Assembly: GCF_030013595.1 (NCBI RefSeq)
Contig: NZ_CP122768.1
DNA: 64,000 nucleotides
Direction: 5' to 3' (one strand)
From: Escherichia coli
GTDB taxonomy: Bacteria; Pseudomonadota; Gammaproteobacteria; Enterobacterales; Enterobacteriaceae
The notes below the pieces were generated by a model. It was not told the DNA's origin. It worked only from the letters and a program-made list of their open reading frames with translations, and did not search any database. The translations under genes and the position numbers were made by a program. This document shows, piece after piece, positions 24,080 through 34,617 of this stretch (positions are counted from its first letter, which is position 1; each line of letters begins with the position of its first letter).

Positions 24080-24155
24080 TGGTGCTGGTTAACGGACTTG
24101 AACCGCTACCCATTCGCTTACAAGGCGACCGCTCTACCATTGGAGCTAAACCAGC
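24080..24155 (-). tRNA. tRNA, hand-folded anticodon UGU (Thr)
   Basis: 76 nt. GCTGGTT acceptor; GCTC/GAGC D-stem; anticodon loop CTTGTAA; T-arm AGCGG-TTCAAGT-CCGTT; AACCAGC-A-CCA 3' end encoded. There is one G:A mismatch at 27:43. Confidence 0.75.
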
Positions 24156-24160
24156 ATATT

Positions 24161-24235
24161 TGGCGGGACAGCGTGGACTCGAACCACGATAAGAAGGTTA
24201 ACAGCCTTCCGTAATGACCTTTATACGACTGACCC
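24161..24235 (-). tRNA. tRNA, hand-folded anticodon GUU (Asn)
   Basis: 75 nt. Anticodon arm GAAGG-CTGTTAA-CCTTC; T-arm CGTGG-TTCGAGT-CCACG; CCA encoded. The acceptor stem has a T:T mismatch at 4:69 and the D-stem is weak. Confidence 0.65.
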
Positions 24236-24298
24236 AAATAAAAAATCCCGAAACCGTTGTGCAGGCTCTAACTATTACCTGCGAACTGTTTCGGGATT
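24236..24298 (-). terminator. tR-prime late terminator
   Basis: AATCCCGAAAC ... GTTTCGGGATT stem followed by a U-tract. The sequence is as in lambda tR-prime. Confidence 0.85.
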
Positions 24299-24509: not shown

Positions 24510-25133
24510 CTAACGTGTGACCGCATTCAAAATGTTGTCTGCGATTGACTCTTCTTTGTGGCATTGCACCACCAGAGCGTCATACAGCGGCTTAACAGTG
24601 CGTGACCAGGTGGGTTGAGTAAGGTTTGGGATTAGCATCGTTACAGCGCGATATGCGGCGCTTGCTGGCATTCTTGAATAGCCGACACCTTTGCATCTTC
24701 CGCACTCTTTCTCAACAACTCTCCCCCACTGCTCTGTTTTGGCTATATCAACCGCACGGCCTGTACCGTGGCAATCTCTGCATCTTGCGCCCGGCGTCGC
24801 GGCACTACGGCAATAATCCGCATAAGCGAATGTTGCGAGCACTTGCAGTACCTTTGCCTTAGTATTTCCTTCAAGCTTTGCCACACCACGGTATTTCCCC
24901 GATACCTTGTGTGCAAATTGCATCAGATAGTTGATAGCCTTTTGTTTGTCGTTCTGGCTGAGTTCATGCTTACCGCAGAATGCAGCCATACCGAATCCGG
25001 CTTGTGATTGCGCCATCCCCATAGCAGCCATCACATCAGTACCGGAAAGAGAGTCAGAAGCTGTAGCCCGTGGTGAGTCGCTCATCATCGGGCTTTTTGG
25101 AGAATGAAATTTAGCTACGCTTTCGAGTCTCAT
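24510..25133 (-). CDS. Q: Late antiterminator Q (lambda type)
   Basis: 207 aa, MRLESVAKFHSPKSPMMSDSPRATASDSLSGTDVMAAMGMAQSQ..., with the zinc motif CRDCHGTG...CGRCKG. Confidence 0.95.
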   Translation of the reverse strand: MRLESVAKFHSPKSPMMSDSPRATASDSLSGTDVMAAMGMAQSQAGFGMAAFCGKHELSQNDKQKAINYLMQFAHKVSGKYRGVAKLEGNTKAKVLQVLATFAYADYCRSAATPGARCRDCHGTGRAVDIAKTEQWGRVVEKECGRCKGVGYSRMPASAAYRAVTMLIPNLTQPTWSRTVKPLYDALVVQCHKEESIADNILNAVTR

Positions 25134-28462: not shown

Positions 28463-28753
28463 TCATCTTTTAACTCCATATACCGCCAATACCCGTTTCA
28501 TCGCGGCACTCTGGCGACACTCCTTAAAAATCAGGTTCGTGCTCATCTTTCCTTCCCGTTCTTCCCTGGTAGCAAACCGGTAATACACCGTTCGCCAGAC
28601 CTTACCTTCGATAACCAGAAGACCTGCCCGTGCCATTTTAGCCGCGGCCTGATTTATGCTGGTTACTGTTGCGCCTGTTAGCGCGGCAACGTCCGGCGCA
28701 CAGAAGCTATTATGCGTCCCCAGGTAATGAATAATTGCCTCTTTGCCCGTCAT
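28463..28753 (-). CDS. ren: Ren (Rex-exclusion resistance protein)
   Basis: 96 aa, MTGKEAIIHYLGTHNSFCAPDVAALTGATVTSINQAAAKMARAGLLV... Confidence 0.9.
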   Translation of the reverse strand: MTGKEAIIHYLGTHNSFCAPDVAALTGATVTSINQAAAKMARAGLLVIEGKVWRTVYYRFATREEREGKMSTNLIFKECRQSAAMKRVLAVYGVKR

Positions 28754-29451
28754 ACACTTGCTCCTTTCAGTCCGAACTTAGCTTTGATTTCTGCGATCTT
28801 CGCCAGAGCCTGTGCACGATTTAGAGGTCTACCGCCCATGACAGGAAGTTGTTTTACTGGTTCAGGGATCGCCTCACCACGGTTAATTCTCGCAGTCATA
28901 TGGACAAGCTCATCTGCGGCCTTACGGCGTAATTCCGCATCAGTAAGCGCATTGGCCCGCATGTTCTGATACAGGTTGGTAACCAGCCAGTAGTGCGCGT
29001 TTGATTTCCACGGATAAGACTCCGCATCCGGATACAGGCCTCGCTTCCGGCAATACTCGTAAACCATATCAACCAGCTCGCTGACGTTTGGCAGTCCGGC
29101 GGTAACGGATGCTTCTTCCCGGCACCATGCAACAAACTGCCCGGGTGATGGCAGAAATGGTCGATTCTGCCGACGGGCTACGCGCATTCCTGCGTTAACC
29201 TGTTCCATCGTGGTGATCCCTTTTTCCCGGAAAGCCAGCACCCACTGGCGGCGGATTTCGTTCAGTTCGTTCTGGTCCCGGTTAGCCAGGCTCGCCGGGA
29301 AAGTTGCCAGTAACTGGCTGAACACACCATTGATGATCTGCGCTACCTGTTGTACCTGCGGCTTTTCGTCGTACTGTTCCGGCATGTTGTTGGCGATCCG
29401 ACGCATCTGCTCACGGTCAAAGTTAACCATCTGTGCGGCGATGTTTTTCAT
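28750..29451 (-). CDS. P: Replication protein P (DnaB loader)
   Basis: 233 aa, MKNIAAQMVNFDREQMRRIANNMPEQYDEKPQVQQVAQIINGVF... Confidence 0.95.
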   Translation of the reverse strand: MKNIAAQMVNFDREQMRRIANNMPEQYDEKPQVQQVAQIINGVFSQLLATFPASLANRDQNELNEIRRQWVLAFREKGITTMEQVNAGMRVARRQNRPFLPSPGQFVAWCREEASVTAGLPNVSELVDMVYEYCRKRGLYPDAESYPWKSNAHYWLVTNLYQNMRANALTDAELRRKAADELVHMTARINRGEAIPEPVKQLPVMGGRPLNRAQALAKIAEIKAKFGLKGASV

Positions 29452-30347
29452 AAATCCACCCCGTAAATCCAGTCAGTGTTTGTCAGGTCGAGTTTTGGTT
29501 TGCTGGCTGTCACGCCTGCCTGTTGCTTGTTACGGTTGATTTCGAGCTGGGTCCACTTGTCGCGGAGTTTGGCCGGACTCAGCACGTTACCGGACCAGAA
29601 GTTGTCCTGGCAGGCCCAGCGGAAAAGCACACACATATCGCGGTGGTTACGTCCGTCACGTTCACGCATCAGGCGGATATCGTTAGCCCACCCAGCAAAA
29701 TTCGGTTTTCTGGCTGATGGCGCGATGGTCTTCACCATGTCAAACATCCACTCTGCGGCGGTCAGGTCTTCTGCTGTTCCCCACTTGCTGCCGCTCTGAA
29801 TTGCAGCATCCGGTTTAACCACAGAAAGATCGTTTTCTGGCTGGTCAGAGGATTCGCCAGAATTCTCTGACGAATAATCTTTTCTTTTTTCTTTTGTATT
29901 AGTGTCTTTTGTGTTCCCCTGTTTTGAGGGATAGCAATCCCCCAATTTGAGGGATGTTTTATCCCTCGTTTTAGGGGATTTTCCCTCGTTTTGAGGGATA
30001 CACCATTCTGAGATGTTTTTATTTGGTCCAAACATGCCGCCTTGCTGCTTGATAATATTCATTCTGACGAGCTCTAACTTGGCTTCATTGCACCGTTTGA
30101 CAGGTAACTTTGTAATCTCGCTAAGTTGAGAATCGGTGATTCTGTCCATTGGTTTATTCCACCCATAGGTTTTACGCAGAATGGCAAGCAGCACTTTAAA
30201 CTGTCGCTTGGTCAGATCTGCGCCTGAATAAGCCTCAAGCAGCATATTTGATAGTCTGGCGTAACCATCATCGAGATCTGCCACATTACGCTCCTGTTCG
30301 GCAAAGTTACCTCTGCAGAAGTTGAGTATTTTTGCTGTATTTGTCAT
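29448..30347 (-). CDS. O: Replication initiator O
   Basis: 299 aa, MTNTAKILNFCRGNFAEQERNVADLDDGYARLSNMLLEAYSGADLTKRQF... It contains the ori iterons. Confidence 0.95.
   Translation of the reverse strand: MTNTAKILNFCRGNFAEQERNVADLDDGYARLSNMLLEAYSGADLTKRQFKVLLAILRKTYGWNKPMDRITDSQLSEITKLPVKRCNEAKLELVRMNIIKQQGGMFGPNKNISEWCIPQNEGKSPKTRDKTSLKLGDCYPSKQGNTKDTNTKEKRKDYSSENSGESSDQPENDLSVVKPDAAIQSGSKWGTAEDLTAAEWMFDMVKTIAPSARKPNFAGWANDIRLMRERDGRNHRDMCVLFRWACQDNFWSGNVLSPAKLRDKWTQLEINRNKQQAGVTASKPKLDLTNTDWIYGVDL
29865..30000. repeat. ori-lambda: four ~18-bp iterons (TCCCTCAAAACGAGGGA-type) plus an adjacent AT-rich tract, inside O
   Basis: The plus strand has four ...cc(c/t)-N-tttgaggga / ttttagggga repeats at about 29915-30000. 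The T-rich tract is at about 29868-29912. Confidence 0.85.
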
Positions 30348-30356
30348 AATGACCCC

Positions 30357-30433
30357 TGTAGATTGATCCAGTAATTCCCTCAGAATTGCATATCAATTTG
30401 CTTAAAATCCTCGGTGGCGGCCGGGGATTTTTT
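30357..30433 (+). ncRNA. oop: oop-like antisense RNA (pO promoter TTGAGT-17-CATAAT at 30322-30350)
   Basis: The sequence gattgatccagtaat...cctcggtggcggccggggatttttt parallels lambda oop. The predicted length is about 77 nt. The terminator CCTCGG-tggcgg-CCGGGG plus T6 lies inside the cII 3' end. Confidence 0.6.
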
Positions 30434-30676
30434 CTTTGTGATTTCATCAAGCGCATACTTAAAAGCCCTGCTAATCGGACTGATGTCTGATGCCATTCCG
30501 AAAGCACACAAGACCGAAGCAATAAATCTCCAGTCCGTTCTGCTTATCTTCGATTCATGACAGCCAATCATCTTTGCCAGACCGCGCTGGGTAAGCGTTG
30601 ATAGGTTGATGAGTAAATCTGTTTCTGCGCGATCAACGTCACGCTGTGATAGTTTGCTGTAACTTGTTCGTTCCAT
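30380..30676 (-). CDS. cII: CII-family transcriptional activator (non-lambda allele)
   Basis: 98 aa between cro and O. It has an HTH-like LAKMIGCHESKISR and a C-terminus KKKSPAATEDFKQIDMQF that parallels lambda CII (KKRPAATERSEQIQMEF). Confidence 0.75.
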   Translation of the reverse strand: MERTSYSKLSQRDVDRAETDLLINLSTLTQRGLAKMIGCHESKISRTDWRFIASVLCAFGMASDISPISRAFKYALDEITKKKSPAATEDFKQIDMQF

Positions 30677-30686
30677 TTCTTAAGAT
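30654..30686 (+). promoter_or_regulatory. Candidate pRE (CII box TTGC-N6-TTGT, then TAAGAT -10)
   Basis: It lies at the 5' end of cII, directed towards cI. Its geometry is like lambda pRE (TTGC-N6-TTGC ... TAAGTA). Confidence 0.45.
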
Positions 30687-30761
30687 TTCCAATAGTGAAT
30701 AGTTAGTTGAAAGGTATGCGTGGAAACGCATATGGCCTTAGTTGGTCAGATATCTTGGGAC

Positions 30762-30807
30762 TCGCTTTTCAGCGACGTAGGACGAATGTCCGTTGTTACA
30801 AAGAGCG
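30762..30807 (-). promoter_or_regulatory. nutR: boxA CGCTCTTTGTAACAA (30793-30807) and boxB TCGCT-GAAA-AGCGA (30762-30775)
   Basis: Read on the minus strand just downstream of cro. The boxB design is the same as at nutL. Confidence 0.7.
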
Positions 30808-30817
30808 GCTCCGCTTA

Positions 30818-31033
30818 TTAAGCGGCTTTGTGTTCCGGCGGGAACACGTCATCAAGACTTACTTTTGCGCCTAACTTATTTAGGCACGCAACAAGAGCAC
30901 GGCATGTTTTAAGGTCTGGGAAGCGACGACCAGATTCCCAATGTCCGATAGCTCCCTGTGTGCATCCAACTGCCTTAGCAAGTGTTGTTTGAGAGATATT
31001 CAGTGACTCTCGATATTTTCGTAGGTTGCTCAT
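30818..31033 (-). CDS. cro: Cro-type HTH repressor (XRE family, non-lambda specificity)
   Basis: The start is refined to MSNLRKYRESLNISQTTLAKAVGCTQGAIGHWESG, with a GGAG SD. It is divergent from cI. Confidence 0.8.
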   Translation of the reverse strand: MSNLRKYRESLNISQTTLAKAVGCTQGAIGHWESGRRFPDLKTCRALVACLNKLGAKVSLDDVFPPEHKAA

Positions 31034-31143: not shown

Positions 31144-31803
31144 ATGAAAATGAAATGGTATGAACTGGCTAGATCCAGAATGAAAGAGCTCGGCATAACT
31201 CAAGAGAAGTTAGCCGAAGAGCTAGGTATGACGCAGGGTGGGATTGGACACTGGTTGCGCGGATCTCGTCATCCATCTCTTAGTGATATTGGTGTGGTGT
31301 TTAAATACCTTGGTATTGATAACATATCATTCAACCACGACGGGACATTTTCACCTGTTGGCGAATACTCATCGGCCCCAGTTAAAAAACAATATGAGTA
31401 CCCTGTATTTTCTCATGTTCAGGCTGGGATGTTCTCTCCAGAACTCAGAACCTTTACCAAAGGCGATGCGGAGAGATTGGTAAGCACAACCAAAAAAGCC
31501 AGTGGCTCTGCATTCTGGCTTGAGGTTGAAGGTAATTCCATGACCGCACCAACAGGATCCAAGCCCAGCTTTCCTGACGGGATGTTAATTCTGGTTGACC
31601 CTGAGCAGGCTGTTGAGCCAGGCGATTTCTGTATAGCCAGACTTGGTGGTGATGAGTTTACCTTCAAGAAACTGATCAGGGATAGCGGTCAGGTGTTTCT
31701 ACAGCCACTAAACCCACAATACCCAATGATCCCATGCAATGAGAGTTGTTCCGTTGTGGGGAAAGTTATCGCTAGTCAGTGGCCTGAAGAGACGTTTGGG
31801 TGA
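31144..31803 (+). CDS. cI: CI repressor: non-lambda N-terminal HTH domain fused to a lambda-type C-terminal LexA-like autocleavage domain
   Basis: The start is [37 protein letters not shown]. From [21 protein letters not shown] onward it is essentially lambda CI, including the Ala-Gly cleavage site, GNSM Ser and FKKL Lys. Confidence 0.9.
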
Positions 31804-31821
31804 TAGGAAGTAAGTTTTATG

Positions 31822-31850
31822 TTGACGGCACAGTCAACTTGGCATAGATT
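31822..31850 (+). promoter_or_regulatory. Promoter-like element TTGACG-17-TAGATT between cI and the NYN gene
   Basis: The hexamers and 17-bp spacing were read directly from the sequence. No experimental support. Confidence 0.4.
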
Positions 31851-31860
31851 AATTAAACCA

Positions 31861-31921
31861 AGCCCAGCCCCGTTCGCAGACAATTGTTAATATCTGCATA
31901 ACGGCTCTGGGCTATTTTTTT
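31861..31921 (+). terminator. Long imperfect hairpin followed by T7 (terminator/attenuator-like), 9 nt upstream of the NYN ATG
   Basis: AGCCCAG..CCGTT..GCAGA-caattgttaatat-TCTGC..AACGG..CTGGGCT, then ATTTTTTT. Confidence 0.6.
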
Positions 31922-31930
31922 GGGACTCTT

Positions 31931-32788
31931 ATGAAGAAAGCAGCAATTTTAATTGATGCGGGTTTTTTCATGCAGCGTGTTCATGCTACGCATCGTAAAC
32001 ACTTCGCCGAGCATGAACTGACTGCGCAATGCATAATGAAAGTAATATGGTCAATGGTTCTTTCCCATCTTAATGGAAAACGTCAATCACAAGAACGTAG
32101 GGAACCGCTTGAGCTTTATAGAATTTACTTCTATGACTGTCCACCACTCGACATTCAAACACGCCTTCCACTTCCTGAGCCTGGCAATAAGACGCCTGGT
32201 CGCAAGAATTTCAAACTCGAAAAATCATATATTCTGAGAACGGAGCTGCATGAAGAGTTAAGAAAAACTCGAAAAACAGCCTTAAGATTAGGGAATCTTG
32301 TTGATAATAAGCGATGGCAACTAACTACATTCTCCCTTGATGCTCTGATGAAAGGAACGAAAAAATGGGATGAACTGACAAATGATGATTTTTACTATGA
32401 CATCAAACAAAAACAAGTTGATATCAAGCTAGGGATGGATATCACGACTTTAGCTTATGAAAAACTTGTTGATGTAATTGTCCTTGTTGCTGGGGACTCA
32501 GACTTTGTGCCTGCCGCCAAACACGCCAGAATTAAAGGTATTGATTTTATTCTTGATCCACTAAGACAGAATGTTACCCCATCACTGTCAGAGCACATTG
32601 ATGGAGTTCAGTCATACAGCTTGATATCAGGACTTGCCGATGCTTTACATGTTGAGCCAGACCCGGCACCTGACTGGTGGGAAGATCGAAAAAAAGGCAA
32701 GCCTAGAGGAAAAAACAATAGCGGTAAACGCAGGTATGGAAACACTCAAGCTGAGTCAGCAAAGAAACATCAAAGAAATAAACGATAA
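31931..32788 (+). CDS. NYN/LabA-like (PIN-fold) putative ribonuclease with a Lys/Arg-rich C-terminal tail, in the rexAB position
   Basis: 285 aa with the motifs AAILIDAGFF, VDIKLGMDITT and VIVLVAGDSDFVPAAKHARIKGIDFIL. The tail is KKGKPRGKNNSGKRRYGNTQAESAKKHQRNKR. AT-rich. The family was assigned by eye only. Confidence 0.7.
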   Translation: MKKAAILIDAGFFMQRVHATHRKHFAEHELTAQCIMKVIWSMVLSHLNGKRQSQERREPLELYRIYFYDCPPLDIQTRLPLPEPGNKTPGRKNFKLEKSYILRTELHEELRKTRKTALRLGNLVDNKRWQLTTFSLDALMKGTKKWDELTNDDFYYDIKQKQVDIKLGMDITTLAYEKLVDVIVLVAGDSDFVPAAKHARIKGIDFILDPLRQNVTPSLSEHIDGVQSYSLISGLADALHVEPDPAPDWWEDRKKGKPRGKNNSGKRRYGNTQAESAKKHQRNKR

Positions 32789-32795
32789 TCCCATC

Positions 32796-32824
32796 AACCC
32801 GGCCACCGAGCCGGGTTTTCTTTG
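32796..32824 (+). terminator. Rho-independent terminator after the NYN gene
   Basis: AACCCGGC-caccga-GCCGGGTT followed by TTCTTT. Confidence 0.75.
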
Positions 32825-34380: not shown

Positions 34381-34452
34381 GCGCGGCGTTACCGCATACC
34401 AATAACGCTTCACTCGAGGCGTTTTTCGTTATGTATAAATAAGGAGCACACC

Positions 34453-34617
34453 ATGCAATATGCCATTGCAGGGTGGCCTGTTGCTGGCTGCCCTTCCGAA
34501 TCTTTACTTGAACGAATCACCCGTAAATTACGTGACGGATGGAAACGCCTTATCGACATACTTAATCAGCCAGGAGTCCCAAAAAATGGATCAAACACTT
34601 ATGGCTATCCAGACTAA
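34453..34617 (+). CDS. cIII: CIII (FtsH inhibitor)
   Basis: My own translation gives [54 protein letters not shown] (54 aa), with an AGGAG SD. It is below the ORF-track cut-off. Confidence 0.9.
   Translation: MQYAIAGWPVAGCPSESLLERITRKLRDGWKRLIDILNQPGVPKNGSNTYGYPD

Follow-up and report, generated by a model that had tools for sequence, protein, structure and literature searches.

Positions 31822-31930 of the 64-kb stretch of Escherichia coli DNA analysed here (contig NZ_CP122768.1; hereafter the window) lie between the cI-type repressor gene of a lambdoid prophage and a gene coding for an NYN-domain protein, a predicted RNase. On balance, we favour the view that this segment serves the NYN module as its dedicated 5′ leader and that it works as a leaky gate, formed by a promoter-proximal terminator of the same class as tR′ of phage lambda. 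From a sigma-70 promoter (31822-31850), transcription would begin some 3-5 nt ahead of a 53-nt hairpin with seven U residues (U7) after it. This tR′-family hairpin would halt most RNA polymerases at 31915-31921, whether they started locally or came from pRM through cI, and termination would yield both the 3′ end of the cI message and a hairpin RNA of ~63 nt. The NYN gene would be carried by read-through transcripts only and translated from a weak Shine-Dalgarno sequence, and the leaky gate would hold the nuclease scarce relative to the hairpin RNA. The hairpin itself is probably also a ligand recognized by its sequence, with the NYN RNase as the most plausible partner, for which it may be a feedback target or an inhibitor. 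The first-pass annotation of this DNA had named an attenuator that keeps nuclease expression low as one possible explanation, and this has become the best-supported reading, given a conserved candidate promoter with its predicted start a few bases before a putative tR′-class terminator. Our analysis adds to that annotation the kinship with lambda tR′, the conservation of the element throughout the NYN family and a second copy of the hairpin in the window.

The hairpin occupies 31861-31913 on the plus strand and, as the first-pass annotation had described, is built from three interrupted tiers. The outer arms are AGCCCAG (31861-31867) and CTGGGCT (31907-31913), the middle arms CCGTT (31870-31874) and AACGG (31900-31904), and the inner arms GCAGA (31876-31880) and TCTGC (31893-31897), which give stems of 7, 5 and 5 bp. 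The tiers are separated by a 2×2 internal loop and a 1/2 bulge, and the apical loop has 12 nt (31881-31892, CAAUUGUUAAUA). A simple terminator scan, in which loops of at most 8 nt were allowed, missed the hairpin only because its loop exceeds this limit. A31914 and then U7 (31915-31921) form the tail, which is the predicted 3′ end of the ~63-nt RNA. The element thus combines a stable, G+C-rich stem-loop with a U-run on the transcribed strand, as is expected of intrinsic terminators, and we consider it very probable that hairpin and U7 form a working terminator, with the homology to lambda tR′ as indirect support. Nine nucleotides (GGGACTCTT) separate U7 from the NYN start codon (ATG, 31931-31933), and they include the weak Shine-Dalgarno sequence GGGA (31922-31925); a GGA at a comparable distance before the start recurs in related NYN loci. 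The features listed in the first-pass annotation all lie at the coordinates given there. Because the gap leaves no space for another promoter, NYN would be made only by read-through, and the earlier statement that transcripts from pRM and from any local promoter must pass a terminator-like structure stands.

Folding of the leader RNA gave −25.9 kcal/mol (z = −3.9), and an equally good fold was found in 1 of 200 shuffles. When 17 distinct leaders were aligned, RNAalifold recovered the hairpin with its three tiers, and 12 of the 17 pairs showed compensatory changes, so that the folding and covariation check proposed in the first-pass annotation came out in favour of the structure. Pairing was retained in 95.5% of the alignment cells, and the covariation score of 0.496 was matched by none of 500 shuffles; controls with a slid register scored no more than 0.131. 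An alignment restricted to nine leaders from Coriobacteriia showed compensatory changes in 7 of 16 pairs, and a third clade (Marinomonas, Vibrio, Pasteurellaceae and others) retains a hairpin that aligns less closely. Wobble pairs across relatives comprise eight G·U cells and no A·C cells, which indicates that the RNA of the plus strand is under selection. A function of the minus strand, which folds slightly better in this particular sequence, was considered and rejected, as the wobble pairs fit the plus strand only. We are therefore nearly certain that the leader hairpin is a real, conserved RNA structure.

Conservation extends beyond the paired positions. At six loci where the NYN gene retains 41-69% third-codon identity to the window, the hairpin is identical at 53 of 53 positions, and the 57 nt on its 5′ side match the window at 35-44 positions. 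The hairpins of Tatumella, Yersinia and locus L104 differ from that of the window by one, two and five compensatory pairs, respectively, and are otherwise unchanged. In the Proteus group, one loop change and one compensatory pair are seen, together with a change of the closing base that leaves A31861 unpaired. Unpaired bases of the hairpin are thus conserved as strictly as paired ones. A generic terminator needs no fixed loops or bulges, and this frozen state points to a sequence-specific partner. More distant leaders (L152-L160, L070 and L074-L081, ~30-60 nt before the NYN start) share unpaired motifs of their own around the inner stem, 5′ GGCGAC... and 3′ ...GUG(A/C)CGA(A/C)CC, which are unlike the E. 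coli type and are incompletely aligned; they suggest clade-specific recognition elements. Searches of Rfam returned no match for the window leader (E up to 1), for the tR′ region described below or for nine distant leaders.

To examine what the hairpin travels with, we drew homologues of the NYN gene from two sources: a set of genomes with a single representative of each species, which gave 36 loci, and viral contigs, which gave 527 relatives, of which 79 loci were kept. Each upstream region was scored for a hairpin of 45-85 nt with a U-rich tail no more than 60 nt before the start codon. Such a hairpin, mostly of 51-55 nt, precedes the NYN homologue in 63 of 72 distinct upstream regions and is found before 6 of 108 control open reading frames (ORFs) from the same loci (the raw count was 8 of 110, from which two that proved to be NYN genes were removed). 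The homologues reach down to 30-45% identity and include members from Gamma- and Alphaproteobacteria, Coriobacteriia and IMG/VR phages, with positive cases in Tatumella, Yersinia, Photorhabdus, Xenorhabdus, Proteus, Pseudomonas, Rhizobiaceae, Marinomonas, Vibrio, Pasteurellaceae, Moraxella and Coriobacteriia. Hairpin classes shift together with NYN clades. By these comparisons, the hairpin marks a widespread NYN family as its putative promoter-proximal terminator of the tR′ class.

The genes on the other side of the leader show no such constancy. They are heterogeneous, and in 15 of 53 cases lie on the opposite strand according to a crude ORF call. In Enterobacterales the NYN module sits behind several unrelated types of repressor, and in other phyla equivalent hairpins precede NYN homologues beside unrelated genes, including genes that are not of phage origin. 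The first-pass annotation had allowed that the hairpin could simply be the cI terminator. This holds as a side effect, as pRM transcripts meet the hairpin, but the element is not tied to cI. On the strength of these comparisons we assign the leader to the NYN gene rather than to cI, and the distribution suggests that the leader RNA is a control element or a partner of the nuclease itself and not merely the end of the repressor gene.

The same separation from cI can be seen in Stx2a phages, 48 of which carry the block from ~31785 through NYN with 99-100% identity to the window. The homology begins with the last 18 nt of a lambda-type cI (window position 31785), and these 18 nt plus a spacer (31785-31821, plus strand) bound the mobile NYN module on the left. 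The block in the Stx2a phages comes after a 933W-type cI and an ORF of 113 amino acids, and the remnant of the lambda-type cI tail travels along with it. This ORF, of unknown function, lies at 2658-2999 in one such locus (L002) and ends just before the 18-nt remnant. In one Stx2a phage (LC616031.1, 9000-15500; also seen at L002 6630), the immunity region is partly duplicated with an IS element between the copies. The first copy holds a full cI, the 113-amino-acid ORF, the leader and NYN; the second, which resembles the AU5Stx1 allele, holds a truncated cI and a second leader and no full-length NYN ORF, although it was not compared base by base.

Leaders also persist where NYN has been damaged. 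In AU5Stx1 the leader hairpin remains after cI, and of NYN only residues 248-285 are left. In the cryptic O157:H7 Sakai prophage Sp1/CP-933H (NC_002695, 301423-302653; also represented in locus L007), the cI gene ECs_0274 is followed by a complete leader and a truncated NYN gene of 129 amino acids (ECs_0273). Among 5426 complete E. coli genomes, the hairpin occurs in 274 and the body of this NYN allele in 77, and many of the genomes with the hairpin alone are O157:H7 strains that carry the truncated gene in an Sp1-type remnant.

A relationship to lambda tR′ emerged when a covariance model trained on NYN leaders only (R1) was applied to other DNA. R1 scores all NYN leaders at 65-86 bits (85.6 bits for the window leader and 26.5 bits for its minus strand), and ordinary terminators in 557 kb reach no more than ~23 bits. 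In the window, R1 finds a further match on the minus strand (24303-24235; 62.5 bits, E = 2.5e-13), which corresponds to a lambda-type tR′. This second member of the hairpin family, the tR′ of the pR′ 6S RNA, occupies 24239-24297 on the minus strand, downstream of a Q gene of 207 amino acids (24510-25133). Around it, the segment 24225-24470 of the minus strand shares 97.4% identity with 233 nt of lambda (NC_001416, 44549-44781) that span pR′, 6S RNA and tR′. Genes for tRNA-Asn (24161-24235) and tRNA-Thr (24080-24155) begin directly behind the U-run of tR′, so that an antiterminated transcript would have the hairpin as the 5′ leader of its first tRNA.

Lambda tR′ and the NYN leader align without gaps in the same register, each as a 53-nt hairpin of three tiers with the common elements GUUCGCAG...AAU.GUUA...CUGCA.AACGG and a U-run, and in both a promoter is followed by a terminator, from which a short RNA is expected. 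They differ in the outer stem and in parts of the loop, and also in position: tR′ follows Q and pR′, ends an RNA of ~190 nt and stands before tRNA or lysis genes, whereas the NYN leader follows cI, would start a few nucleotides before the hairpin and stands before NYN. By sequence, then, the leader is a homologue of the lambda tR′ hairpin, but by position it is not tR′. The viral contigs hold ~85 copies of the lambda-tR′ type, none of them before NYN, and ~110 copies of the NYN type, all of them before NYN apart from one lambdoid locus (L040) and the Chaseviridae. L040 is a late region with a Q-like gene, a 6S-like RNA, tRNA-Arg, holin and lysozyme, and its tR′ is an NYN-type hairpin, identical base for base. 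Two virulent Chaseviridae phages, BSBP01 and 2KOFFS, also carry the hairpin at 98% identity (L004 2501-2562 and L005 3-63). There it fills the slot of the tRNA-Arg gene of phiEcoM-GJ1 (L258), with a small ORF and the spanin genes downstream, which suggests that the Chaseviridae cassette was acquired from a lambdoid tR′-tRNA region. The copies at the L040 tR′ and in the Chaseviridae slot indicate that the hairpin is also a portable terminator cassette.

The proposed promoter consists of a −35 hexamer TTGACG (31822-31827), a spacer of 17 nt and a −10 hexamer TAGATT (31845-31850), located where the first-pass annotation had placed it, and has 9 of 12 matches to the sigma-70 consensus. In 19 diverged leaders (mean column identity 58%), the TTGAC of the −35 element and the A of the −10 element are invariant, and the first and last T of the −10 element as well as a CA just before the stem are nearly so; the core TTGAC / TAnnnT keeps a fixed distance from the hairpin at all of these loci. 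Of 61 distinct loci, 40 have a sequence that matches the sigma-70 consensus at 9 or more of 12 positions, and in 35 of these 40 the −10 element ends 8-19 nt before the hairpin. From this comparison we judge a functioning local promoter upstream of the hairpin to be likely. Its position predicts a transcription start at ~31856-31858 on the plus strand, which leaves 3-5 nt before the hairpin, and the primary product would therefore be an RNA of ~63 nt that is nearly all hairpin and U-tail.

Overlapping the −35 hexamer is a dyad, GTTGAC-N6-GTCAAC (31821-31838). Of 66 distinct regions upstream of NYN, 10, which belong to several clades, contain TTGAC-N6-9-GTCAA exactly, and 25 contain it with no more than one mismatch; by our own estimate an exact dyad is expected by chance in roughly 1% of loci. 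NYN loci with this symmetry include those of Tatumella, Yersinia and Lysobacteraceae and those of the Pseudomonas type, and TTGAC-N6-GTCAA may be an operator.

Several other regulatory devices were tried and set aside. An ORF of 23 codons that runs from 31819 and ends in the loop could encode a leader peptide, but its start codon is absent in relatives. Pairing of CTTGGC (31838-31843) with the 5′ arm as an antiterminator, through the inverted repeat CTTGGC/CCAAG, is contradicted by Tatumella, Yersinia, L104 and L115, in which the motif is unchanged when the stem changes; the TTGGC motif is confined to close E. coli relatives. With a predicted 3-5 nt before the hairpin and neither a conserved leader ORF nor an alternative fold found, the leader does not resemble a riboswitch or a leader-peptide attenuator. 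Pairing of the loop with the NYN start region looked compensatory when E. coli and Proteus were compared, but RNAduplex energies were no better than those of shuffled loops.

The remainder of the locus has the layout of a lambdoid immunity region, in the orientation opposite to the lambda map. The minus strand holds P, O, cII and cro (28750-31030). The cI-type repressor gene (31144-31803, plus strand) encodes HTH_3 and Peptidase_S24 domains with a C-terminus resembling lambda cI, and its transcripts continue into the leader. The NYN gene (31931-32788, plus strand, 285 amino acids) occupies the position of lambda rexAB, as it does in phage 2B8, for which the public annotation gives an identical gene order. 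An ordinary intrinsic terminator (32796 to 32817 or 32827, plus strand) with an 8-bp stem, six GC pairs and then TTCTTTGCCT ends the module; beyond it lie a pL-like promoter and N. At 34440-34498, the lambda cIII thermoregulator (RF01804, 88.5 bits) confirms that a lambda-like early-left operon lies downstream of NYN. A lambdoid moron in the rexAB slot is a self-contained block between cI and pL with its own promoter and an end terminator, and it moves as a unit. The NYN module shares these features, including its place between conserved phage genes and its mobility as a unit, and adds a terminator between promoter and gene that a plain moron lacks.

Pfam finds a single family in the 285-amino-acid protein, NYN (E = 6.8e-9). 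The protein is TIGR00288-like and matches phrog_5783 (E = 1.5e-119), whose function is unknown. Acidic residues and a GDSDF motif are invariant among 16 NYN homologues, and we infer that the protein is an RNase or a defence protein. PADLOC returned weak HEC-09 and NYN matches only, and in the literature on NYN defence systems we found nothing specific. A single-sequence AlphaFold model was unusable, with a predicted local distance difference test (pLDDT) score of 32. The C-terminal tail of the enterobacterial protein (encoded within 32640-32788) is rich in Lys and Arg (...WWEDRKKGKPRGKNNSGKRRYG...KKHQRNKR), and homologues at 30-56% identity stop ~35-55 residues sooner, without this tail.

Among known systems, the type III toxin-antitoxin loci ToxIN, CptIN and TenpIN share with the NYN module the order of promoter, structured non-coding RNA, intrinsic terminator and nuclease gene, as well as residence on mobile elements and a presumed anti-phage role. 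The NYN leader differs from a type III antitoxin in being a single hairpin without tandem direct repeats; Tandem Repeats Finder reported no rows for 31600-32100, where no direct repeats were found either, in agreement with the earlier remark that repeats of the ToxI kind are absent. The NYN/PIN-like domain protein is likewise unlike the ToxN/AbiQ, CptN and TenpN families. Lacking both the repeats and a ToxN-type toxin, the leader and NYN are not a member of the ToxIN type, although by analogy they may work like a type III system. The earlier comparison with ToxIN therefore survives in the layout, and the conserved unpaired bases argue for a specific ligand, but it fails on the repeats and on the toxin family.

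The closest functional precedent is AbiF/RCd22 of a Clostridioides difficile prophage, in which a toxic protein is preceded by a conserved, structured, non-repeat RNA that lowers expression in cis and neutralizes the protein in trans by direct binding (bioRxiv 10.1101/2025.04.15.648962). AbiF differs from the NYN module in its Abi_2 protein and its abiF RNA motif; we found no Abi_2 domain in the NYN protein and no Rfam match for the leader. Another comparable RNA is StxS, a short and stable RNA produced in Stx lysogens by a constitutive phage promoter and the terminator tR′ (PMC7547250). The promoter-terminator pair is similar, but StxS is associated with a Q type of 144 amino acids, compared with 207 in the window, and is processed from a 258-nt transcript; it is reported to have no sequence similarity to lambda 6S RNA (bioRxiv 10.1101/2024.10.31.621285).

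The size of the hairpin and its position before NYN are kept across phyla and its unpaired bases are frozen, and on these grounds we regard recognition of the hairpin by NYN as an evenly balanced proposition. One form that recognition could take, which we consider possible but improbable, is an antitoxin of the type III kind: an excess of the ~63-nt RNA would bind and inactivate NYN, shut-off of host transcription by an infecting phage would lead to decay of the RNA and abortive infection, and the copies at tR′ and in Chaseviridae would be mimics. The conserved order of promoter, structured RNA, terminator and nuclease fits this, as do unpaired bases that are invariant across saturated synonymous divergence, the place of NYN in the prophage rexAB slot with 527 relatives in viral contigs, the occurrence of the hairpin alone in the two virulent Chaseviridae phages, and the precedent of AbiF/RCd22, where a non-repeat RNA neutralizes a prophage Abi toxin in cis as well as in trans. 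Leaders that outlast truncation or deletion of NYN (AU5Stx1, Sakai Sp1 and the 274 hairpin-bearing against 77 NYN-bearing E. coli genomes) also speak for an antitoxin, but these orphans are mostly one clonal O157 remnant; moreover, the module has neither tandem repeats nor a ToxN, CptN or TenpN toxin, and the Chaseviridae copy simply stands in for a tRNA gene, with a tR′-tRNA cassette as its possible source. Phages 2B8 and Brookers carry NYN and hold the leader copy only in their whole genomes, which counts against an antitoxin and led us to reject self-immunity through a second tR′-type copy as a general property of NYN phages. A broader version, in which the hairpin is the cognate RNA of NYN, as an inhibitor or specificity element, in a non-repeat, type III-like toxin or abortive-infection module of RNA and protein spread over several phyla, with lambda 6S/tR′ and the Chaseviridae copies as disarming mimics, appears unlikely. 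So, to a similar degree, does an autoregulatory target, by which NYN would cleave or bind its own leader hairpin and, with the same specificity, attack late transcripts of the lambda type at tR′. Comparable self-regulation is seen with RNase III and RNase E, and sequence-specific conservation of a hairpin before its own gene, hairpin classes that change along with NYN clades and the close likeness to lambda tR′ are all in keeping with such a role; yet the resident prophage has a tR′ of the same family and would itself be a target on induction, and NYN is also found in phages with unrelated late terminators.

A generic cassette, that is, an efficient and portable terminator or module boundary that ends cI and insulates NYN, is kept uniform by recombination among co-resident lambdoid prophages and has no NYN-specific role, would account for the use of the same hairpin as tR′ in lambda-type phages and L040, for its presence in the Chaseviridae tRNA slot, for its retention as a post-cI terminator in AU5Stx1, where NYN is deleted, and, through gene conversion, for identical 53-mers among E. 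coli prophages. We find it doubtful, because recombination does not explain hairpins of similar size with U-tails before NYN in Alphaproteobacteria and Coriobacteriia (63/72 against 6/108), and neither the compensatory changes restricted to paired bases in other genera nor the conserved promoter directly before the terminator is explained. The order of promoter, terminator and potentially harmful gene also recalls an antitermination switch, in which NYN would stay silent until a processive antiterminator or other antitermination activity of an induced prophage or of an invading phage permits passage through the hairpin; the control of the Pseudomonas alp lysis genes by AlpA is comparable (PMC7969949). 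The terminator class is the one overridden by lambda Q, and the conserved dyad over the −35 element could load a factor. However, no conserved pause-inducing −10-like element was found past the NYN promoter start, the TTGGC motif occurs only in close E. coli relatives, and at the NYN promoter no Q-utilisation site was recognised apart from a loose TTGG resemblance to a Q-binding site, in another register and without a dedicated search. NYN modules are found alongside various Q types as well as in non-lambdoid and non-phage contexts, so that no single antiterminator fits, and we hold such a switch to be improbable. A stable 3′ hairpin with U7 is the usual Hfq-binding module, and the leader has such a 3′ end, so that the terminated leader could be a trans-acting small RNA of the Hfq type that acts on host or phage mRNAs by way of its loop, in the manner reported for StxS and lambda 6S RNA. 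The 6S RNA of lambda, with a related hairpin at its end, is reported to be Hfq-associated and of unknown function (bioRxiv 10.1101/2024.10.31.621285), and StxS shows that terminated phage leaders can turn into regulators (PMC7547250). This explanation seems to us just as improbable as the switch: there is hardly any single-stranded RNA beyond the hairpin, complementarity of the loop to the NYN start region is not above shuffled controls, and the linkage to NYN in bacteria without Hfq-type regulation is left unexplained.

Our preferred reading, a leaky tR′-class gate dedicated to NYN, must also be set against several observations that weigh on the other side. No qualifying hairpin with a U-tail was found at four Rhodanobacteraceae homologues (L054-L056 and L060), and in Marinomonas the U-run is weak. 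The promoter match in the window is by itself not above chance (7 such sites compared with 9.4 expected in a 6-kb region), so that the case for the promoter rests on the comparison with relatives. An A between the stem and the U-run may weaken termination. The hairpin serves without NYN at lambda tR′, at the L040 tR′ and in the two Chaseviridae phages, and its conservation need therefore not stem from NYN. Finally, a table of Hfq sites in enterohaemorrhagic E. coli Sakai has no entry near 301.8 kb, where the Sp1 copy lies at 301813-301939 on the minus strand, in a data set from which sites less than 100 nt from genes were excluded by design.

If this reading is right, a prophage gene family that is widespread would possess a conserved RNA element not described before, the likely control RNA or partner of a predicted RNase in the classic rexAB defence slot. 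Many prophages of pathogenic E. coli would also have the 3′ ends of their cI messages defined by the leader. The relationship ties lambda tR′ to the leader of a nuclease gene, and two questions follow from it: what keeps the loops and bulges of tR′ constant, and does lambda 6S RNA make contact with nucleases of this kind? Should the lambda and Chaseviridae copies indeed prove to be mimics, this would give lambda 6S RNA a function.

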